From a virus (taxonomy: Duplodnaviria > Heunggongvirae > Uroviricota > Caudoviricetes): DNA of 27,542 bases. The notes under the pieces were generated by a model. It saw only the letters and a list, made by a program, of their open reading frames with translations, made no database searches and was not told the DNA's origin. The stretch lies in IMG/VR virus record IMGVR_UViG_2663762992_000005, one strand, 5' to 3'. A program made the position numbers and the translations under genes. Of this stretch, positions 13,389-27,329 are shown piece by piece. The stretch's first letter is position 1. Each line of letters opens with the position of its first letter.

Positions 13389-13780
13389 TATCCTGTTTAT
13401 TTGATACAAACTTAGTAGAAAAAAAGGAATCAGAAACGGTCGCTAGCGGGAACTTCTCATTTATAAAGAGAACTTAGGCGGTCGCCGCCCAAGCATGTCG
13501 CAACGGCAAGTGACAATTAATAATGATAATACTTATACTTTATTGTCATTATGGAGGCTTTCAAGTGTCGACGTTATGCAGAAACCATGCCTGAGGAGAC
13601 CTTCGACAACACACTTATGTCTGACATGCTCAGCACTCAATTCCCTCCATCGGCAGTTTATGTTGTGCAACATAAATTATAGTGCCATCAATCACAGATT
13701 AAACAAGTGTGACTTATACACCCGTATCGTTGGATCAGTCTTTGGAGGAGTATTCATGATTGCCGTCATTAATCCGCGGA

Positions 13781-13814
13781 TTTTAATAAAAAAGCACTGG
13801 CAAATACCAGTGCT
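13781..13814 (-). terminator. Intrinsic terminator for the two-gene moron
   Basis: Eight-bp stem AGCACTGG/CCAGTGCT with a 6-nt loop, followed on the minus strand by TTTTTATT. Confidence 0.55.
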
Positions 13815-13889
13815 TTAACAATAACTCTACATCTAGAAAGTTAAAAATCTTAAAAGCAAAACATAAATAGCAATGTAAAATTAAATTAT

Positions 13890-14267
13890 TTATTTTTTGT
13901 CTTTAAAATAATAGCCAATTATAAACCCAAGAGATGTTCCTAACGCACTAACCATAATAGATAACACCTTATCTAACTCAAGTAGTGCGATACTTTTAGA
14001 AGCCTCCATGAGCCCTTTGCTTTGTAATTGAAGTACCCATTGCACTGCGCAATAGTTATAAACTATCACAAATATAAAAGAAAAAACGATAAGACCAAAA
14101 AAGCCTCTCATAAATGTTATGGTTAATGTACTCCTTGTTTTACCATCACGAAGAAATTGAGCCTGAATTTCATTTTCAATCTCTCCTGTTTCCTTCTCTA
14201 TTCTTTTATCTTCAAATCTTAACGCATTAACTTTAGATAACAAAGCCTGAATATCTTCCGTAGCCAT
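13890..14267 (-). CDS. Hypothetical membrane protein (coiled-coil N-terminus, two C-terminal TM helices)
   Basis: 125 aa; strongly AT-rich codon usage; ATG at 14265-14267 preceded by GGAGGGG located in the end of the upstream gene. Confidence 0.55.
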   Translation of the reverse strand: MATEDIQALLSKVNALRFEDKRIEKETGEIENEIQAQFLRDGKTRSTLTITFMRGFFGLIVFSFIFVIVYNYCAVQWVLQLQSKGLMEASKSIALLELDKVLSIMVSALGTSLGFIIGYYFKDKK

Positions 14268-14269
14268 TA

Positions 14270-14539
14270 TTACCCCTCCGACCTAAGCTCTGCTAATTTA
14301 TCGAGGGCATTAATGTATTTAGCATGTGCCTTATGATAATTGGCAATTGCTTTGAGCGACTCATTAATATCTTCAGAAAATGATGAATAAAATTCATATG
14401 GATCCTTACCAGCATAGTCAGGTAAGTTCGTTATGATTTTTTGTATTAAAACAATATTTTTATCCGTAAGTTCACCTGTAGCATCTCTGAATTCAAATAA
14501 ATTTTGAACTATAGCATCTATTTTTTTTACATTCGACAT
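14270..14539 (-). CDS. Hypothetical small acidic protein
   Basis: 89 aa, AT-rich, first gene of a two-gene unit with its own promoter. Confidence 0.55.
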   Translation of the reverse strand: MSNVKKIDAIVQNLFEFRDATGELTDKNIVLIQKIITNLPDYAGKDPYEFYSSFSEDINESLKAIANYHKAHAKYINALDKLAELRSEG

Positions 14540-14574
14540 ACATAATCCATTTTTCTCAGATTAACTGTTGAATT

Positions 14575-14604
14575 ATTATAGTTCATTTACACCTTTCATC
14601 TCAA
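14575..14604 (-). promoter_or_regulatory. Sigma70-like promoter for the two-gene moron
   Basis: Minus-strand TTGAGA (14599-14604), 18-bp spacer, TATAAT (14575-14580), about 35 nt upstream of the ATG at 14539. Confidence 0.4.
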
Positions 14605-15284
14605 CTTATCATACCATTGATAACACTTTTTTGAACCAGTCAGCTATGAGTGGCCCATCAAAGGATTTAGAGGTTCGATTCATCAGTGTTATCCAATTTA
14701 TCTTGACATCAATAGGGTAAACGGTTATGACTAAAACTACATGACTATCGCGTAGGCAATTCGGACAAAGGTGATTATCAAGCTTAGAAATGAAGGTACG
14801 TTTATATCCCACCAAATACCGTAACCACATTCATGGCGACTTTTTCAGTTCTGCGTTGATGCCAGACGTTGAGTTTGAGCCCCTCGTAATAGCCTAAACA
14901 GTCAGTAGTAGTCCGCAGACATCCTAGTGGGATAAGAAATCATATAGTTTTTTAATTTTCCGTCGCAAAGTAAAATCCCCAGGCGCAAACGGTTTACCCT
15001 AGCTAACTACTGTCACAGCATTCCCCTGAATGCCTGCTGCAATGCTCACTTAGTAGTGTTGAAGTCCTACCCCTTAAGCGATAAATCGGTAAAATTGAAA
15101 CTAAGGCTTCAATGATGTGACATAGAGACGGCGGTCCAATTCTATCAGTTTACCGATCAAAGCGACTACAAACTCCTTTTTTTTAATCTCATTCGATACT
15201 TCATATCGTTGAAGGAGTGTAGACTCAGGTCGTTGTGCATTGTGTAATTCATTTTCAATTTCTTTTAATGTATGGAGTAGAGTC

Positions 15285-15941
15285 ATGGGAATTCTCACTT
15301 TCGATATCACTTGCCCACATTGTCTGAGGGAAAATGCTGTCCTTGAAGGATGGGCAGAACTGCGTATCAACGCCGGGCCTTTAGTTAATATTGCATTTTG
15401 TTGTCGAAGCTGTTTTCAATCAGGTATTGCTATTGTAAAAATGAATAATCCCGGTGGTTATTTACCTCGTGCAAAATCTAGGCAAAATAATGATGTAAAC
15501 GTAATCATTCCTGGAAATACTGAGTACCAGTTGATTGATATCATCCCGAAACCCACCCTCCTTAACGCCCCCGAACACACTCCGCCACGTGCTGCTATGG
15601 CTTTCATAGAAGCAAAAGACAACTTAGGGCGCTGTCGTTTCGACACATCCGTTATGCTTTGCCGTAAAGTCTTGGACATTGCTACACGGGAGTTACTGGG
15701 AAATGACTCAAAAGATGAAAAATTGGTTAAACGGATTTCTATGTTGCATGCTAAGGGACTGATTACAGATCAAATGAGGGAATGGGCACATATAGTTCGA
15801 ATCGATTCCAATGGAGCAGTTCATTCTGATGAAGAATTTTCAAAAGAAGATGCTCAAGAAATGATTGGTTTCACCGAAGTATTTCTTCTATATGCCTTCA
15901 CATTGCCTGATATGGTAGACAACAAAAAACAAAATCAATAA
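15285..15941 (+). CDS. Zinc-ribbon protein with DUF4145/HEPN-like C-terminal domain; candidate abortive-infection or defence protein
   Basis: ATG at 15285 with GGAG 7 nt upstream. N-terminal CPHC and CCRSC cysteine pairs; C-terminal R-x7-H motif (VRIDSNGAVH) in a helical region, as I recall for DUF4145. AT-rich and opposite in strand to the surrounding phage genes. Confidence 0.55.
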   Translation: MGILTFDITCPHCLRENAVLEGWAELRINAGPLVNIAFCCRSCFQSGIAIVKMNNPGGYLPRAKSRQNNDVNVIIPGNTEYQLIDIIPKPTLLNAPEHTPPRAAMAFIEAKDNLGRCRFDTSVMLCRKVLDIATRELLGNDSKDEKLVKRISMLHAKGLITDQMREWAHIVRIDSNGAVHSDEEFSKEDAQEMIGFTEVFLLYAFTLPDMVDNKKQNQ

Positions 15942-16156
15942 GTTATAGAGCCACAGTTTGACATCCACACTTTGTTATGCATAAGAATGTCTTTCTTGGT
16001 CTGCCTGTCCAGCACTTCCCAATCATGAGCAGTGCCGTAGATGGGTTTTACCCAATCGCAGCCGGTGTCAATAACCTCAATCCTTACGTGTCCAGTTTTT
16101 GCGCAGCTCGCGATCAGCAGCGTCATCAGGCATATGGTTAACAGTCTGTTGTACAT
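15935..16156 (-). CDS. o-spanin (Rz1-like outer-membrane lipoprotein)
   Basis: Signal peptide with lipobox LIASC; start lies inside the i-spanin gene in another frame and the ORF extends past its stop (overlapped architecture). Confidence 0.65.
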   Translation of the reverse strand: MYNRLLTICLMTLLIASCAKTGHVRIEVIDTGCDWVKPIYGTAHDWEVLDRQTKKDILMHNKVWMSNCGSITY

Positions 16157-17249: not shown

Positions 17250-17622
17250 CTGAACCTCCCCGGCGCGTTATCAGCGCCACCAGCGAGCCGACATCCTGAT
17301 TATTCAGGAATGTCAGGATTTTGACGGCTAAAGCAGAAACGATTACGGCGCCAATGGCATCCAGTGGTTTATCACTGTAGCCGGTAGCCTGAGCCAGCTT
17401 TGAACCCACCAGCCCGGAACAAAGGATCCCCGCGATATACGACACCAGAAAATATGCCAGTCGGCGCGCTGCACTTAGATCCGCTGCGGTTGCAATGTAA
17501 AATACAGCCCCGGCAAATGCGCCAAACACCACGCCGTAATCGGTTCCGGATAGAAATCCATAGACGCTGGCCCCCGTCAGGACACCACCAGCCATCCCAG
17601 AACCGGAAATCGGATCGGACAT
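17236..17622 (-). CDS. Holin
   Basis: 128 aa with three predicted TM segments and a charged C-terminus; ATG at 17620-17622 preceded by GAGGGGGG; first gene of the lysis cassette. Confidence 0.6.
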   Translation of the reverse strand: MSDPISGSGMAGGVLTGASVYGFLSGTDYGVVFGAFAGAVFYIATAADLSAARRLAYFLVSYIAGILCSGLVGSKLAQATGYSDKPLDAIGAVIVSALAVKILTFLNNQDVGSLVALITRRGGSGGTK

Positions 17623-17672
17623 TTAGCCCCCCTCTTTGTTGCTGTGAGTCCTCTCAGAATGAGGGGAAATGA

Positions 17673-17700
17673 TTGATTTTATACATTAAAATATTACAAT
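17673..17700 (+). promoter_or_regulatory. Sigma70-like promoter for the plus-strand membrane protein
   Basis: TTGATT (17673-17678), 16-bp spacer, TACAAT (17695-17700), 30 nt upstream of the ATG at 17730. Confidence 0.35.
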
Positions 17701-17729
17701 ATATTTTTGACCAACTTTTGAAGAATACA

Positions 17730-18392
17730 ATGGACTCGAATACCTTAACCATTATAGGAACATTTATTGTTGCCATAATAAGCGGATTACTGGCTTATTC
17801 ATCTTCTCTTTCTGCAAAGGAAAAAGAGGTCAAATTATCCGCATATGAAAAACTCGGACTTGATATACATGCCAATCTTGAAAAGCTTTACAATAATACA
17901 GAATGGCTTTTACTGATTTTTCAACACAAGAATACATTAAACCGCGGAGATTTAATTATTGCCAACAAACAAGTTTCTCTAGACGTTGACAAACTCAGAG
18001 AACTTAGCATAAGAATGAGATTTTTTGATAATGCTTGCTATAAGAAATATGAATCTGTAGTTCAATCGCATGGTAATTTAATACCACAAATACTTGGTTA
18101 TACTCGGCATCCACATGAAACCCCAAGAGATGCTTCAGAACTTTACTCTCGAGAAGAAACACAGGAATTTATAAATAAATTATCCATACTAAAAGATGAA
18201 ATAAATAGCACTAAGATCCATATAACGAACAAAATAGCCAAGGAATATAACAAAGCCCTATCATCTTCAAGGAAAGTTACAGTGCTAGCTTTCATAGTAT
18301 TATTTACTGCATTTATAGCATTTATAATTTTCCCTTTGAAAGAGCAGTCACCTTCGCCCGCAAAAGAAAAAGTCATGCTGCTCTCTTCATAA
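17730..18392 (+). CDS. Hypothetical membrane protein with N- and C-terminal TM helices
   Basis: 220 aa from the ATG at 17730 (the track ORF starts at an upstream TTG); AT-rich; transcribed opposite to the late operon. Confidence 0.5.
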   Translation: MDSNTLTIIGTFIVAIISGLLAYSSSLSAKEKEVKLSAYEKLGLDIHANLEKLYNNTEWLLLIFQHKNTLNRGDLIIANKQVSLDVDKLRELSIRMRFFDNACYKKYESVVQSHGNLIPQILGYTRHPHETPRDASELYSREETQEFINKLSILKDEINSTKIHITNKIAKEYNKALSSSRKVTVLAFIVLFTAFIAFIIFPLKEQSPSPAKEKVMLLSS

Positions 18393-18611
18393 AAACTCGC
18401 ATTTTAGGCTGATTTTTATGCACCTGTGCAGGTAAGAACGATTACTAATTTAGCCTCACCTCCGATAGTTCGTATGGCGCTGTGGTTGATGGAGGGGGGG
18501 GCTGGCTTATGCGCTATTATGAAAATGTGAAGATAAGTATAATTTGCGAAACCTGAAATTATAAAAGACTTCCATTTGGAAGCCTTTAAAATAGCAGCAA
18601 GCGACTCATTG

Positions 18612-19463
18612 TTATTTTGTAGGTTTAGGACCTAACGTGAATTTTGATTTAGTTCCTTTTCGCAACCGTCTAACATCAGGAAAAAGTTCTACTAATCTAT
18701 CTGTACACTTAGTCAAGGATTCAGTACAAATAATCATCCCCATAATCATATAGCCAAAGTCATAGTTGTTAAAACAACCAGTTCCTCTTCCGTTTGGCTC
18801 CATTTTATAATATGACATAGGTAGTATATGCGTATAATGAGATAAAAAATCGAACATTATTTTAAATGACTTTGGATCTTTTCCCAGTTTAACCAATAAC
18901 TCATCTCGATTTGGAATCATAAGCGCTTTTCCAGTCAAGCAACGTTTTCTGGTTCCTTGTTCAAGGGATAAAAAAACAGGGTTGTTATTAAGTCTCTCAG
19001 TTATTATATCTTTTTGTTCATGATAAAAATCCAATGCTTTCGTATTATCACTAGATGTAAATAACTCAATTCTCTTTACACAATCATTCATGTGCATGAC
19101 ATTCAACTTTGCTGACCACTCCTCAGTTGAATCTGGATTCTCAGATAAATACATAAACAATAACTCAGCTTCCAGAATCGCTCTTACATGAGGTGCAATC
19201 GCCGAAAAATCCCAAAAGTCATAATCCCGCTTAGCCCATCTTGATTTTGGTACGTTGGAAATCATTATTGAAGCATGAATGCAGATTCGTGAAAAAATGT
19301 ATGTAGACCACCCTTTAAAAGCCTCAGCCATTCGCACACCAACCCCCTGACTTACAGCATTCGCTTCACATACAGCTTTATCAAACTCCCTTAAGTAGTG
19401 ATGGAAGTCATCCATCGAAAAATCGTTTCGTTCAAGTGGATTTTCGGGATTATCTATTTTCAT
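18612..19463 (-). CDS. Hypothetical protein (orphan, AT-rich)
   Basis: 283-aa ORF between the tR'-like terminator and the holin; followed by its own hairpin plus T-run near 18565-18584. Confidence 0.55.
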   Translation of the reverse strand: MKIDNPENPLERNDFSMDDFHHYLREFDKAVCEANAVSQGVGVRMAEAFKGWSTYIFSRICIHASIMISNVPKSRWAKRDYDFWDFSAIAPHVRAILEAELLFMYLSENPDSTEEWSAKLNVMHMNDCVKRIELFTSSDNTKALDFYHEQKDIITERLNNNPVFLSLEQGTRKRCLTGKALMIPNRDELLVKLGKDPKSFKIMFDFLSHYTHILPMSYYKMEPNGRGTGCFNNYDFGYMIMGMIICTESLTKCTDRLVELFPDVRRLRKGTKSKFTLGPKPTK

Positions 19464-19510
19464 ACTTCACCTATTTAAAACAATTGGTTTAAATCGGTGA
19501 ATTATAACGC

Positions 19511-22026: not shown

Positions 22027-22413
22027 TCAGGCGGCCGCACCCGCCGGTTCATATCTGCTGATCGTTATCTCTACCCGACCTTTCGGCACTACGGGTCCCC
22101 ATTCCACCAGCATGCGCTTAATCTGGCTGTCATCTTCCCAGACACCCGCATGCGTCAGCGCGTCAAACAGGGCTTTGTTGTAATTATCGATATCCCGGCG
22201 GCGCGCATCCGGCGGGTACAGAGTGATTTCTACCGCAGCCAGTTCAGTCGATGGCTTCGGGAGACGTCGTAATTGCTCAATGATCGCCACGCAGGCAGCG
22301 CTCTGGTATTTACGGCCTTCAGCGCTAATGAGGTGACGACCAGCCAGCGCCCCCTTGTTAGGAGCGCGCCAGTAAGTGTTCACGCTGGGTGGAAATGGGA
22401 GTATGAGCCTCAT
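22027..22413 (-). CDS. rusA: RusA-family Holliday junction resolvase
   Basis: 128 aa; motifs PPSVNTYW, SAEG and DARRRDIDNYNKALFDAL align with my recollection of E. coli RusA. Confidence 0.75.
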   Translation of the reverse strand: MRLILPFPPSVNTYWRAPNKGALAGRHLISAEGRKYQSAACVAIIEQLRRLPKPSTELAAVEITLYPPDARRRDIDNYNKALFDALTHAGVWEDDSQIKRMLVEWGPVVPKGRVEITISRYEPAGAAA

Positions 22414-22527
22414 TAAAAGCCTCCGTCATAATTCCTGAAACATACCTCAACTTTCCCGCTATAGTGACGAACACGTTGAACAACATCCGAAATAGGCGCT
22501 ATACCGGCAGGGCGATAAAAGACTGTT

Positions 22528-23850
22528 TCACGCATGAGTTACCCCCTGCATGCTGTCGACAAGACCACGCGCAATTGTGATTATTTCGCTGGTGGACATT
22601 CGTTCCAGCCAGAGTTGATTGATGTTGGCTTTCAGCTTGTTCTGCTGTGATTCATCCAGCATGTCAGCACCATCCACCTGGTCGAATACAATTCCAACCT
22701 CCAGTGGCCATATACGGGACTCGGGAAGCTGATCGGCTACTGGTTTAGCTTTCTCACGGATGTGCATGCGGATCTGGCGAATATTGGACCAACTGGAAAC
22801 ATCCAGGCTTCCCATAGCTGCAATGAAATCAGTACTGTTCATGCCATATTCACCAGATGCTTCAAGGGCAACAGTACGAATACGTTCCGACATATCCAGG
22901 CGCGCAGCAGCGTCATCGAATTCAATCGACAACAGCCACTCATCCACACCGAGCAAAATACTCTCACGAATAAGCAGCTTCGCTTTGTCGATCGTTAATG
23001 GTGATACCTGAGTGAATTCCGGTGCTTCGACAGAATCCGCCGCCCAGGTATGCCCAAACTTCGATTCACTGAATGTGTATTCTTCTTTATCGCCGAACGC
23101 AGCTCTAACGCATGCCCACGCCTCAACACCGCTGATATCAAAAATATCTTTCTGGGTAAGTGGCAACTCTGCTTCTGGCTTGTCAGCTACAGGTGGTGTG
23201 GCGGTTGCTGGCTGAGGTTTGCTGGTGGCAAACTGTGCCAAAGCCATAAACGCGCGCCCTTTTGTTTCCAGTTCTGTGCGGTTGATATAGCTGAATCGCT
23301 CGCCACGCCATGACTTATCGAATACAGCTATGGCTCCGGAAAAAAACGCGCTGGTGGGCTTCTGTTTTTCGTCAGCAGGTACAAACCACACTGGCAGATC
23401 GAAACCAATGCGCCCGCGAATGAATACAATGTGATCGGCATCTTCCGGCCACCACGTTTCACTCGGCGCGGCTTTTATCAGGAATACATAGCGACCGCCC
23501 TTCTCGCGCTGGGTTGCTGCGTACTTCATGATGTGCGTCATACCAGTGATCGCCTGTTTCTCGTGGTACTGCGAGCGGCTATATGGAGGGTTGGCAAAAG
23601 CCGCGCCACCCAGTTCTGCCAGACGTTCAGACCAGTCCTGCGTCAGTGCGTTATCTTCGGCGGTGTACCATGCCGGGCATTTCGCGTTGTCGTCGTCAGC
23701 AAACAAGTCCAGAACTAATGGACCAAATAGCGCGTTGATACCCCAGAAAAGCAGATCCGGTGTCCGCCACTGATCGCCAACTTCTTTCAATTCGTGAGCT
23801 GGTTTTGAACGCAGTTCGGCCAGCGCGCGGCAGTATTTGTTTTCAATCAT
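22528..23850 (-). CDS. DNA N6-adenine methyltransferase fused to a C-terminal domain of unknown function
   Basis: The N-terminal third contains the NPPY catalytic motif (FANPPYS) and upstream conserved blocks like phage Dam-type methyltransferases; the C-terminal ~250 aa are unassigned. Start overlaps the replication-gene stop (ATGA). Confidence 0.6.
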   Translation of the reverse strand: MIENKYCRALAELRSKPAHELKEVGDQWRTPDLLFWGINALFGPLVLDLFADDDNAKCPAWYTAEDNALTQDWSERLAELGGAAFANPPYSRSQYHEKQAITGMTHIMKYAATQREKGGRYVFLIKAAPSETWWPEDADHIVFIRGRIGFDLPVWFVPADEKQKPTSAFFSGAIAVFDKSWRGERFSYINRTELETKGRAFMALAQFATSKPQPATATPPVADKPEAELPLTQKDIFDISGVEAWACVRAAFGDKEEYTFSESKFGHTWAADSVEAPEFTQVSPLTIDKAKLLIRESILLGVDEWLLSIEFDDAAARLDMSERIRTVALEASGEYGMNSTDFIAAMGSLDVSSWSNIRQIRMHIREKAKPVADQLPESRIWPLEVGIVFDQVDGADMLDESQQNKLKANINQLWLERMSTSEIITIARGLVDSMQGVTHA

Positions 23851-24779
23851 CCTCTGAATCCCTCTGGAATTTTGGTATCTACCGGGCCGAACTTCATCGG
23901 GTCATGTTTCTTCTCGCCCCAGCTTTCACGAGGGGGACGGCCTTTCTTATCCCAGCGGAGCCCGCTTTGCAGATAACCCTCAAATTTTTTCGGCCCAAAC
24001 AGAGTTTCAGGCCGCATGTACTGATACTGCGCGTCATTGCCGTTCCAGTGTTCATGCTTGAGGTCAATCACCAGCGTTAAGTCGCTGACGGTATAACCTT
24101 CACGCAGACGGGCACGTATGTTTTCCAGAGAGGTTTTAGATTTCTGGTACCGGGAGCCGCTTACCTGGTTCAAATGAGTTAAAACCAGGATGGCGTTATC
24201 AGTGATCAACACCTCAGGGTCTGGTTGCGGCGCAACCGGACAAGAGGGGTTAATGATCTGTTTGTGGTGATCTGAGTAATGATCTGTATAGAGAATAGGT
24301 TCCGCGACTTCGCGGTTAGGGTTCCGCGATTCTGCGTTTTCGGTTCCGTGATTCTGCGGAATAGGTTCCGCGACTTCGCGTTTCCCGTTCCGCGATTCTG
24401 CGGAATCCAGCGTTGCCGGGAATAAAACATTGATTAGCGCTTCGCCATTGATACGGTAATGCGTCTTTTTCGTGCCGTTTACCTGTCGCTGCGCCTTTTC
24501 AACAACCCCTGGTAGCCAGCGGGTACAAATCTTGTTTACCAGGCGCTGCACCTGATCTTCACTCACGCCGCGAATCTCTGCCGCAAGCTCGCTGTGCTCT
24601 TTATAAAACCAGCCATCATTCAGATCTGATTTACCAGACCAGAACACGAGCTGGTTTAGCACAGCGCCCAAAGCATGCGCCTGCTGATCGCCGGAGAAAT
24701 AATCGAGGTACGGGACCGGAATGGTGATGCTATTCCTTTGCCCCGACAGCGATTGAACGATTTCAAATATCTGGCTCAT
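23847..24779 (-). CDS. Replication initiation protein (O-like) with conserved phage C-terminal domain
   Basis: C-terminal segment LNQVSGSRYQKSKTSLENIRARLREGY...YMRPETLFGPKKFEGYLQ matches the conserved phage C-terminus found in replication proteins; the gene contains an iteron array. Confidence 0.65.
   Translation of the reverse strand: MSQIFEIVQSLSGQRNSITIPVPYLDYFSGDQQAHALGAVLNQLVFWSGKSDLNDGWFYKEHSELAAEIRGVSEDQVQRLVNKICTRWLPGVVEKAQRQVNGTKKTHYRINGEALINVLFPATLDSAESRNGKREVAEPIPQNHGTENAESRNPNREVAEPILYTDHYSDHHKQIINPSCPVAPQPDPEVLITDNAILVLTHLNQVSGSRYQKSKTSLENIRARLREGYTVSDLTLVIDLKHEHWNGNDAQYQYMRPETLFGPKKFEGYLQSGLRWDKKGRPPRESWGEKKHDPMKFGPVDTKIPEGFRG
24299..24403. repeat. Iteron array: five copies of a ~17-bp unit GTTCCGCGAYTYYGCGG at exact 22-bp spacing (putative origin of replication)
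   Basis: Copies begin at 24299, 24321, 24343, 24365 and 24387; each has partial dyad symmetry (TTCCGC...GCGGAA); located inside the O-like gene as in lambda ori. Confidence 0.6.
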
Positions 24780-26526: not shown

Positions 26527-26645
26527 GGTAAAAGTTGTTGGCACCATTGATCATACAACCTAAACAACTTTTACCACAACTTTTAGGTGTTGGAAAGCTA
26601 AAACATAAAGTTGTAATCTCTCCTAATACAGGGGGTAAAGTTGTG
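26527..26645. promoter_or_regulatory. Operator/promoter region between cro and cI with five copies of the half-site TAAAGTTGT / ACAACTTTA
   Basis: Copies at 26529-26538 (+), 26564-26573 (-), 26577-26586 (-), 26606-26614 (+) and 26636-26644 (+); the first two form a 13-bp inverted repeat GGTAAAAGTTGTT...AACAACTTTTACC. Confidence 0.5.
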
Positions 26646-27329
26646 AATACACTTGCGGAACGACTAAAAATAGCTAGAGAGAAGAAAGGCATGAGCCAGG
26701 CTCAGTTAGCCGAGCTAATAGGCCTGTCTCAACAATCTGTGGCGAAAATTGAAAATGGAGATACGCTTCAACCTAGAAAGATCAAAGATATTGCGAAAGC
26801 TTTAGATGTATCCCAAAAATGGCTACAGCTCGGAATTGAGGAGAATGGCTCTATTTCTGATTTTGTAGTTGAGGAACTTGAAGAAGCAAAACTTGATCCT
26901 GAAGTATTTGCCAACATACCCGTTCTCGATGTTGAGTTCTCTGCTGGCAATGGATGTGAAGCCGAAATTGTGGAATCAGTTGTTGATTCGTTCCCTCTTC
27001 GTCGTTTCGATCTTAGAAAAGCTGGAGTCAGTCCTGCTAACGCAAGAATCGTAAAGATTTGGGGCAACAGCCTTTTGCCAGTATTGAATAATGGGGATCA
27101 TGTCGCGATTGACATGTCACAGTCGAAACCTATCAGAGATGGTGATTTATACGCTGTTAGAGATGGAGTTTTACTTCGAGTTAAAGTTCTTATCAATCAA
27201 CCAGATGGTGGTTTGATACTGCGGAGTTTCAACAAAGAAGAGTACCCGGATGAAGTACTCAACTTTGATGAAAGAAGAGCCAGAATACACGTTATTGGTC
27301 GCGTGTTCTGGTCTTCACGTTCATGGTAG
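26643..27329 (+). CDS. cI: CI-like repressor (N-terminal HTH, C-terminal S24 LexA-like peptidase domain)
   Basis: [26 protein letters not shown] preceded by helix 1; C-terminal domain with GNSLLP (Ser) and a downstream Lys as in LexA/CI autocleavage domains. Probable GTG start at 26643 with GGGGG 7 nt upstream. Confidence 0.8.

Follow-up and report, generated by a model that had tools for sequence, protein, structure and literature searches.

The phage Dam family of DNA N6-adenine methyltransferases (PF05869, TIGR01712) includes the enzymes of the phages HP1, VT-2 and SfV as well as the YfdM relatives of CPS-53, and its members presumably recognise GATC, as judged from annotation and from the work on HP1, VT-2 and SfV. 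The Dam of SfV (217 aa) consists of the core without any extension, and Sb44 of ST64B and the Mtase of phiNP carry a small additional C-terminal module, referred to here as TAIL. In methyltransferases of other types, C-terminal add-ons that bind DNA are known, and CcrM depends on its C-terminal domain to bind DNA. Dependence on a separate component has been described in Stx phages, where M.EcoPA8orf6770P-PNB-2, an MT-A70 protein designated a 'DNA adenine methyltransferase', is a 16S rRNA methyltransferase whose function requires an accessory subunit, probably contacted via the C-terminus (PMC10810198). This accessory dependence resembles the role proposed below for two C-terminal modules and serves as a functional analogy for docking, but the enzyme belongs to MT-A70 and not to PF05869, acts on rRNA and has a winged-helix accessory subunit unrelated to those modules; it was therefore retained as an analogy only and rejected as a relative.

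The gene analysed here lies in a stretch of 27,542 nucleotides from a virus of the Caudoviricetes (IMG/VR record IMGVR_UViG_2663762992_000005), hereafter referred to as the window. An earlier note on this DNA had described the product as an adenine methyltransferase fused to a C-terminal part of roughly 250 aa, placed where a P-like helicase loader would normally follow the O-like gene. The domain organisation, the predicted fold, the selection and the genomic contexts of this protein and its relatives were examined, and it is on balance probable that the gene encodes an orphan phage Dam with two accessory modules acting in docking or assembly.

Methods

The open reading frames of the window and their products were compared with Pfam, NCBIfam and PHROG, and the 440-aa protein also with the PDB. 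Relatives were collected from IMG/VR, from species-representative genomes and from a set of representative proteins. Structures were predicted with AlphaFold2; a first model of the whole sequence, built from a shallow alignment, reached a pLDDT of 51 and was left out of the fold search. The names MID (~140 aa, residues 229-368) and TAIL (~60 aa, residues 382-440) were coined in this analysis.

Organisation of the gene and its neighbourhood

The coordinates of the gene, its parts and its neighbours are given in Table 1. The ORF begins with ATG, and the match of its product to phrog_111 spans residues 2-440. The N-terminal domain matches Pfam PF05869 (Dam; residues 19-199, E 9.6e-45, 152.7 bits against a cutoff of 28.1) and NCBIfam TIGR01712 (phage_N6A_met; residues 16-196, 205.5 bits against a cutoff of 97), and its sequence assigns the protein to the phage N6-adenine methyltransferases. 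The length and the NPPY motif reported in the earlier note are borne out, with the refinement that the motif, placed there in the N-terminal third, falls within the first fifth of the sequence, in a catalytic domain of ~205 aa. Residues N87, P88, P89, Y90, D48, L49, F50 and D52 are invariant in six homologues including the SfV Dam. The domain is 71-78% identical to the Dam proteins of SfV, ST64B and phiNP and has a dN/dS of 0.07; these proteins also share the DLFAD and NPPY motifs and the place after the replication gene and before rusA. The target of the enzyme is most likely GATC, by analogy with its subfamily. The window holds 113 GATC sites against about 107 expected, a count that does not bear on this specificity.

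Table 1. Features of the methyltransferase gene and its neighbours in the window
Feature	Coordinates	Strand	Evidence or remarks
Upstream replication gene, O-like/DnaD-like N-terminus + Phg_2220_C	23847..24779	-	PF09524 E 9e-24; phrog_428, phrog_9773, phrog_6493
Whole gene, predicted phage N6-adenine methyltransferase + C-terminal extension (Dam + MID + TAIL)	22528..23850	-	ORF, PF05869, TIGR01712, phrog_111
Catalytic Dam domain, residues 1-205 (DLFAD 48-52, NPPY 87-90)	23236..23850	-	PF05869, TIGR01712, motifs
Pro/Ala/Thr-rich linker, residues 206-228	23167..23235	-	variable length and sequence in homologues; dN/dS 0.30
MID sub-module A, residues 229-290	22981..23166	-	alignments; pLDDT >90; dN/dS 0.06
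MID sub-module B, residues 291-368, helical	22747..22980	-	alignments; dN/dS 0.13
Short inter-domain linker, residues 369-381	22708..22746	-	pLDDT drops to 68-72
TAIL module, residues 382-440, three helices	22531..22707	-	phrog_16025; alignment; dN/dS 0.13
40-aa ORF, fills gap to rusA	22413..22535	-	starts in 8-nt ATGCGTGA overlap
rusA, RusA Holliday-junction resolvase	22027..22413	-	PF05866; slot architecture

The methyltransferase gene directly follows the O-like replication gene, as the earlier note had stated. Its start overlaps the stop codon of that gene by ATGA and is preceded by a GAGG Shine-Dalgarno sequence, and the overlap indicates that the two genes are translationally coupled. 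The order of a Phg_2220_C replication gene followed by a Dam gene recurs with no extension (SfV), with TAIL only (ST64B, phiNP) and with the full extension, and is a trait of the lineage. The ORF list and the Pfam and PHROG searches revealed no P-like, DnaC-like or DnaB-like gene in the early operon of the window. On the downstream side, comparisons of the slot identify rusA as the conserved boundary of what may be called a modification slot. Between the two, the 40-aa ORF starts in an 8-nt overlap, ATGCGTGA, which is the same in phage Eeyore and which in relatives opens the gene of a large C5-cytosine methyltransferase. This gene (645 aa) follows with the 8-nt overlap in Eeyore and in some E. 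coli prophages, whereas the window has the 40-aa ORF instead and holds no PF00145 gene. The 40-aa ORF, a putative gene with no PHROG match, was considered as a possible leftover of this gene; the common part is only the start junction (Met-Arg-Glu), beyond which no DNA or protein homology to the C5 methyltransferase was found.

The C-terminal extension

An extension is indeed present. It is slightly shorter than had been noted, about 235 aa (residues 206-440) instead of 250, and is a composite of linker, MID and TAIL rather than a single domain. The first linker, of low pLDDT in the full-protein model, is the most relaxed segment of the protein; the second is the junction at which the Dam+TAIL forms of 293 aa rejoin the alignment. 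MID sub-module A carries the motif LPL..I...SGVEAWAC..AAFG.K.EYTF.ESKF.HTWAADSVE.PE and occurs without sub-module B in two relatives (P0173 and P0134), and a Dam+MID-A architecture also exists. Sub-module B has the motif W.NIR..R..I close to its end and predicted helices at residues 284-308, 314-335, 339-347 and 357-368 (model numbering +225). TAIL, with the motif WP.EV..VF.Q..G...L...Q..LK..IN..WLE, has predicted helices at residues 383-391, 400-415 and 420-439, and residues 379-434 match phrog_16025 (E 1.4e-11).

The AlphaFold2 model of residues 226-440 is almost entirely helical with a mean pLDDT of 90.5, and the dN/dS values of 0.06-0.13 across MID and TAIL indicate purifying selection on both. 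The computed pI is 4.4-4.8 for MID-A, MID-B and TAIL, and with this acidity the modules are not DNA-binding in character. A domain-level HMM search, which the earlier note had proposed, gave nothing in Pfam for residues 220-440, 220-377 or 378-440 with the threshold relaxed to E<=10, nor in NCBIfam for residues 220-440 at E<=0.1. The full protein has no sequence match in the PDB, and the last ~235 aa of the predicted model match no entry of the fold library. The function of this part is thus as unassigned as had been claimed. No similarity to a known target-recognition domain or DNA-binding fold emerged from the Pfam and fold searches, no Walker A/B motifs were found in the extension, and the PHROG matches of the protein are to methyltransferase families only, with no loader family among them.

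Distribution of the MID and TAIL modules

A close relative is a protein of E. coli Nissle 1917 (WP_001704140.1), which is 92% identical and has the same Dam+MID+TAIL architecture and the same neighbours, as do the homologues in the phages Eeyore, Flotzy and Phi06_2987; a further identity figure for this long-form group is 74%. Some homologues are labelled 'phage N-6-adenine-methyltransferase', and several are mis-annotated as 'PAPS reductase' or 'phosphoadenosine phosphosulfate reductase'. With 328 MID-encoding loci in IMG/VR, in addition to the Nissle copy, this Dam-like gene is not rare, and MID gave 43 matches among 1.84e9 representative proteins. An exact 50-mer search of the species-representative genomes returned no match, and no relatives of P0127 were found in IMG/VR. 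No link was found to the non-specific methylases M.EcoGII, a class-beta enzyme (PMC7544214), and Hia5, PMC3299994 holding no relevant family or domain information; no usable literature was found on the Nissle 1917 methylome or its prophage-3 methyltransferase.

In the window, MID is recognised by the motifs SGVEAWAC..AAFG, ESKF.HTWAADSV and W.NIR..R, C-terminal to a DNA-acting domain and after a Phg_2220_C replication gene. Among its carriers are Dam+MID proteins (391-399 aa), Dam+MID+TAIL proteins (439-448 aa) and, at 13 of the 23 species-representative loci, ParB-like proteins that are not methyltransferases. The latter (435-491 aa; AH07 gp48 and proteins of Pantoea and Erwinia prophages) consist of ParB-N, HTH_ParB and a C-terminal MID that is 35-43% identical, lack TAIL, and occupy the same slot, after a Phg_2220_C replication gene and PerC and before rusA. 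In Pantoea phage AH07, the ParB+MID gene is followed by a DpdA-like transglycosylase gene. The possibility that ParB+MID serves DpdA in the manner of DpdB was considered and found to be only partly supported: DpdA-like and/or MT-A70 genes follow at three (AH07, L275 and L284) of the 14 loci with readable flanks, and many ParB+MID genes are directly followed by rusA. MID-less relatives of the ParB-like protein have different surroundings, for instance in front of lambda O/P. Stand-alone MID proteins were also considered as separate genes, and most turned out to be pieces of fused genes interrupted in draft assemblies by N-runs or frameshifts; one (P0131), located in a degraded island, may be truly free-standing.

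A Phg_2220_C replication gene lies directly upstream in 79/80 long-form viral loci of IMG/VR, in 34/34 MID-bearing loci and in 21/23 species-representative genomes, and MID has the same position at the loci L099 and L008. Where Dam or Dam+TAIL occurs without MID, such a neighbour is present at 18 loci and absent at 26. The association of MID with these replication genes is real, although it is confounded by shared ancestry, the counts being drawn from related prophages in which the events are not independent.

TAIL has more than 1000 homologues. Besides the Dam+TAIL architecture (293-297 aa; hundreds of Citrobacter and Salmonella entries), to which the protein in the window adds MID between core and TAIL, it is fused to a different class-I methyltransferase in one relative (P0160). 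The phrog_16025 proteins (85-94 aa, ~42% identical) are free-standing homologues with an extra N-terminal helix, encoded in phages whose replication modules differ, for instance O + DnaC-like or DnaB. In 79/80 IMG/VR loci the free TAIL ORF precedes, with an overlap, a PF00145 protein of 575-729 aa; the same C5 methyltransferase follows at 35/80 long-form loci. TAIL is nevertheless kept in many phages without this enzyme (among them the window, Nissle 1917 and ST64B), so that it either has, or has kept, a function independent of the C5 methyltransferase or is on the way to loss, its dN/dS arguing against decay.

Probable roles of the accessory modules

From the domain identity, the modular architecture, the confidence of the fold, the purifying selection and the co-occurrence observed here, we infer the following as the best explanation. 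The gene would encode an orphan DNA N6-adenine methyltransferase of the HP1/VT-2/SfV type, expressed from the early-right operon in coupling with the replication gene and most likely methylating phage DNA at GATC-type sites as it replicates. The last 235 aa comprise two independent, acidic and almost entirely helical modules, which enterobacterial lambdoid phages shuffle among DNA-acting proteins between the Phg_2220_C gene and rusA, and which most likely act in assembly or in docking between proteins. TAIL probably pairs with the large C5-cytosine methyltransferase, multispecific in appearance, whose gene normally comes next, and MID probably tethers its carrier, whether Dam or ParB-like, either to itself or to a partner specific to the lineage. 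This docking role is read from comparisons of sequences, and acidic helical domains could alternatively act as regulators or DNA mimics. On this explanation the extension serves neither in target recognition nor as a helicase loader.

That the extension is a P-like loader replacing a missing loader gene is extremely improbable, and comparison with relatives already contradicts it. The idea is based on position, directly after an O-like gene in a window devoid of P, DnaC or DnaB homologues. The same slot, however, holds the extension-free Dam in SfV and Dam+TAIL in phiNP, which has a Phg_2220_C-type replication gene (E 8e-44), has no MID and forms plaques (PMC6456863); together with the 18 further Phg_2220_C loci having Dam or Dam+TAIL, these show that MID is not required wherever the initiator is present. 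The absence of family or fold matches and of Walker motifs, as well as the acidity, also stands against it, and the loader reading was rejected. A domain for target recognition or DNA binding, changing or widening the specificity of the Dam core, would suit the very small PF05869 core (~165 aa) and the fusion of TAIL to at least two methyltransferase families, yet it is improbable, since all the modules are acidic, MID is joined just as much to ParB-like proteins that have an HTH of their own, TAIL exists as a free 85-aa protein adjoining the C5 methyltransferase, short Dam forms with a 75% identical core do without the extension, and the Pfam and fold searches revealed no known target-recognition domain or DNA-binding fold. 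By analogy with the 16S rRNA methyltransferase of Stx phages, the real substrate might be an RNA such as rRNA, with MID and TAIL recruiting the enzyme; this seems very improbable, as that enzyme is of the MT-A70 type and the neighbours here are genes of DNA modification and processing (C5 methyltransferase, DpdA-like, RusA).

A softened form of the idea in the earlier note is that MID is a replication-coupling domain binding the Phg_2220_C initiator or the recruited host helicase or primosome, so that its carrier, Dam or ParB-like, would travel with the phage origin or replisome or be loaded there, and newly made phage DNA would be modified at once. The near-exclusive position of MID directly after Phg_2220_C genes (also in AH07), the occurrence of MID-less Dam forms both with and without this neighbour, the translational coupling, the presence of MID on two N-terminal partners within one slot, both DNA-acting but unrelated, and the other contexts of MID-less ParB-like relatives are all consistent with it, and we regard it as unlikely but worth consideration. 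A similarly tentative proposal is that MID is a docking domain not described before, which links DNA-acting enzymes to the Phg_2220_C initiator or its replisome, and that TAIL is a second one, which assembles the adenine and cytosine methyltransferases into one multi-enzyme anti-restriction complex; the former would imply that modification of nascent phage DNA is coupled to replication.

Conclusion

Enterobacterial prophages, among them those of the probiotic Nissle 1917 and of many pathogens, very commonly encode Dam-like methylases. The extra 235 residues of the protein analysed here are two conserved, selected and independently mobile domains, common to ParB-like proteins and C5-methyltransferase operons, from which two new domain families, MID and TAIL, can be defined. 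The analysis also corrects the database annotation of homologues labelled as reductases and removes the false lead of a supposedly missing helicase loader. It further provides the testable idea that phage DNA-modification enzymes may be assembled or targeted through dedicated docking modules.

Genomic context and catalytic domain

The window carries a lambdoid prophage, whose gene order as read on the minus strand is given in the table together with the segments of the 440-aa protein. The 40-aa ORF shares an 8-nt overlap (ATGCGTGA) with the methyltransferase stop and a single base with the start of rusA (TAATG); beyond the 8-nt junction, no homology to the tested sequences was found.

Features of the window in gene order, followed by the segments of the 440-aa protein
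Feature	Position	Strand	Place or remark
cI-like repressor	26535-27329	+	First in gene order
cro/YdaS-like gene			After cI-like repressor
CII/YmfL-like gene			After cro/YdaS-like gene
DUF4222 gene			Between CII/YmfL-like and replication genes
Replication protein, Phg_2220_C domain	23847-24779	-	Directly before Dam+MID+TAIL gene
Dam+MID+TAIL gene	22528-23850	-	Between replication gene and 40-aa ORF
40-aa ORF (MRETVFYRPAG...)	22413-22535	-	Between methyltransferase gene and rusA
RusA, Ant, DUF968/HNH, Q			In that order after 40-aa ORF
Low-GC island	17600-19500		After Q, before holins
ORF, 239 aa	17673-18392	+	In 17600-19500 island
ORF, 283 aa	18612-19463	-	In 17600-19500 island
Holins, endolysin			After first low-GC island
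Low-GC island	13500-15950		After holins/endolysin, before small terminase gene
ORF	15240-15941	+	In 13500-15950 island
Small unassigned ORFs	13495-13818, 13890-14267		With 13500-15950 island
Terminase, portal, protease, capsid, tape measure			End of gene order
Dam core	residues 1-205		Alignment with homologues of varied length
Linker	residues 206-228		Pro/Ala/Thr
MID	residues 229-368		Long forms only (alignment of homologues)
Short linker	residues 369-381
TAIL	residues 382-440		Also in medium forms

The island preceding the terminase (34-40% GC vs ~53% elsewhere) resembles a moron or a defence insert, its plus-strand ORF matching DUF4145 (E 8e-11) and phrog_1305 'DNA binding protein'. The other island (35-38% GC) occupies the site between Q and the holins, a home of cargo such as toxins and defence genes in lambdoid phages; its 283-aa ORF has a weak, below-threshold match to DUF5677 and its 239-aa ORF no match.

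Pfam PF05869 'Dam' covers residues 19-199 (E 9.6e-45) and TIGR01712 'phage_N6A_met' residues 16-196, the latter at a score far over the curated cutoff, with the catalytic motifs DLFAD and NPPY at 48-52 and 87-90. Over the core, identity with the SfV and Stx-phage Dam proteins is ~75%. Its catalytic identity as a phage Dam-type methyltransferase is secure, and we infer GATC specificity for it. The HP1 and VT-2 Dam enzymes are presumably PF05869 members. Both are cited as cloned Dam methyltransferases in the reference list of PMC7556043. The label 'phosphoadenosine phosphosulfate reductase', carried by this Dam family in many records (PP925821.1, NC_004313.1, NC_003444.1 and other phage records), is erroneous for the Dam proteins seen in this analysis and was likely transferred from phrog_33262, a family of PAPS-reductase-like + Dam fusions. 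An extreme C-terminal motif, VD..IPEGFRG, is common to otherwise unrelated replication proteins right before the Dam start (window 23847-23880; SfV orf39, locus L005), which points to a conserved junction at which modules may be exchanged or translation coupled.

A composite C-terminal extension

An NPPY methyltransferase with an unassigned C-terminal extension of ~250 aa had been described in the earlier note. The enzyme assignment is confirmed, and a domain-level HMM search of residues 220-440 gave no Pfam match at E<=10 and no NCBIfam match; the extension is present, at ~235 aa, and is composite rather than single. TAIL recurs in the abundant 293-297-aa medium forms (Dam+TAIL; e.g. ST64B Sb44, phiNP Mtase), intact ORFs of 391-399 aa encode Dam+MID without TAIL, and both modules are missing from the SfV Dam (217 aa). 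MID too is divisible: sub-module A (229-290) is found without sub-module B in two homologous proteins, P0173 and P0134.

An AlphaFold2 model of residues 226-440 (35-sequence alignment; mean pLDDT 90.5) is nearly all helix, with seven helices in MID, three in TAIL and a lower-confidence linker in between. Among 70 unique long-form genes, the dN/dS ratio was lowest in MID-A (0.06) and Dam (0.07), 0.13 in both MID-B and TAIL, and highest in the first linker (0.30); the extension is thus constrained to the same degree as the catalytic domain. MID-A, MID-B and TAIL are all acidic (pI 4.4-4.8), and none has a Walker motif. No relative was found in a PDB sequence search with the whole 440-aa protein, no Foldseek match of the extension to BFVD or PDB at E<=0.001, and no significant match of the MID and TAIL profiles to PDB sequences or of 10 MID sequences to Pfam.

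Distribution of the long form

The long form (Dam+MID+TAIL) is not rare. Genes 92% identical occupy the equivalent site in E. coli Nissle 1917 (WP_001704140.1) and E. coli MB06232, and among isolated phages, Eeyore, Flotzy and Phi06_2987 have genes 74% identical. MID is encoded at 328 IMG/VR loci, and the MID region of two IMG/VR loci (L019, L020) is 100% identical to that of the window. Nearly all of the best 80 of the 328 have the order Rep(Phg_2220_C), Dam+MID+TAIL (439-448 aa) and RusA, with a large C5 methyltransferase before RusA in 35 and truncated or frameshifted genes in a few. Only 43 matches to residues 220-440 came out of 1.84 billion representative proteins searched exhaustively with phmmer. 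In 185,579 species-representative genomes MID was found at 23 loci, the hosts being all Enterobacterales save two oddly labelled assemblies and including Citrobacter murliniae (97%), Mixta, Enterobacter, Buttiauxella, Phytobacter, Kosakonia, Erwinia, Chania and many Pantoea.

MID and TAIL in other contexts

MID is the C-terminal part of a ParB-N + HTH_ParB protein at 13 of the 23 loci in species-representative genomes and in Pantoea phage AH07 (gp48). This protein occupies the same slot as Dam, downstream of the Phg_2220_C replication gene (plus PerC) and upstream of rusA. In AH07 and two other loci (L275, L284), a DpdA-like transglycosylase gene (phrog_887, E 8e-97), an MT-A70 methylase gene or both come next; rusA is directly downstream in other ParB+MID loci. 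The ParB-like+MID gene of AH07 (genes 48-49; L013:7001-9075), L275 and L284 overlaps the DpdA-like (tgt-family) and/or MT-A70 gene, and these temperate Pantoea/Erwinia phages may encode a DpdA/DpdB-like 7-deazaguanine DNA-modification pair in a lambdoid early operon. Locus L099, where overlapping ParB-like and MID ORFs (possibly one frameshifted gene) precede a 91-aa MT-A70 ORF, may be a fourth case. Since bacterial DpdA requires the ParB-like ATPase DpdB (PMC10164549), a link of ParB+MID with DNA modification is plausible, though not general. Eho59 and Mulock have a MID-less ParB-like relative upstream of lambda-type O/P, and in OS31 and ep3 such relatives lie elsewhere.

TAIL has >1000 homologues, the majority free-standing 85-94-aa ORFs (phrog_16025), and is fused to another class-I methyltransferase in the homologue P0160. 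The gene after the free ORF encodes a 575-729-aa PF00145 C5-cytosine methyltransferase in 79 of 80 IMG/VR loci, the two genes overlapping in the loci read in detail. A variable middle of ~400 aa splits the PF00145 motifs of these enzymes (L001:6328-8265, L014:6255-8225, L017:6282-8471, L004:4878-6605), in which they resemble the multispecific methyltransferases of Bacillus phages. Phages with free TAIL have other replication modules, e.g. O + DnaC-like or DnaB. Dam(+MID)+TAIL and C5 methyltransferase genes share 8 nt where they meet in Eeyore, phiNP and E. coli LR881940; the ATGCGTGA junction starts a 645-aa C5-cytosine methyltransferase in Eeyore, whereas in the window it opens only the 40-aa ORF. 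Nearly all MID/TAIL proteins have one or two alanines at the C-terminus (EAA, DAA, KAA, HA, YA), consistent with a terminal GCA codon through which the next gene is joined in an ATGA overlap; some of the overlaps have a GAGG-type Shine-Dalgarno ahead of them. ATGA overlaps at the module junctions mark translational coupling, and the junctions may double as recombination joints.

Probable role of the extension

The gene lies where a P-like helicase loader was expected, and the earlier note had considered the extension in that role. This proposal is rejected and its likelihood negligible, because family, motif and fold evidence are all absent, SfV holds an extension-less Dam in the equivalent slot, and phiNP pairs a Phg_2220_C replication gene (E 8e-44) with Dam+TAIL, lacking MID, yet forms plaques (PMC6456863). 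A methyltransferase target-recognition domain is improbable, as the extension is acidic, is shared with ParB-like proteins having their own HTH, and includes TAIL, which occurs as a free protein; that the substrate of the enzyme is RNA seems more improbable still.

The Phg_2220_C replication gene lies just upstream at 79 of 80 long-form viral loci, all 34 MID-bearing viral loci (a set overlapping the former) and 21 of the 23 MID loci of species-representative genomes, while Dam or Dam+TAIL without MID has it at 18 loci and lacks it at 26, the loci in these counts being phylogenetically non-independent. MID may be tied to a lineage-specific partner, of which the Phg_2220_C initiator or the replisome is the most interesting candidate; the specific version, in which MID couples its carrier to either, is considered doubtful.

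As a variant of a known enzyme family, the protein is annotated and widespread. Its two C-terminal domains as defined here, together with their shuffling among Dam, ParB-like and other methyltransferase contexts, appear undescribed; a literature search of limited reach found no description of either. A phage methyltransferase depending on an accessory subunit has precedent in another family (PMC10810198). The best-supported reading, held with moderate confidence, is a general one, in which MID and TAIL would serve as mobile modules for protein-protein docking or assembly in a phage 'DNA-modification slot'; TAIL would have a functional tie to the large C5 methyltransferase and MID one to a lineage-specific partner.
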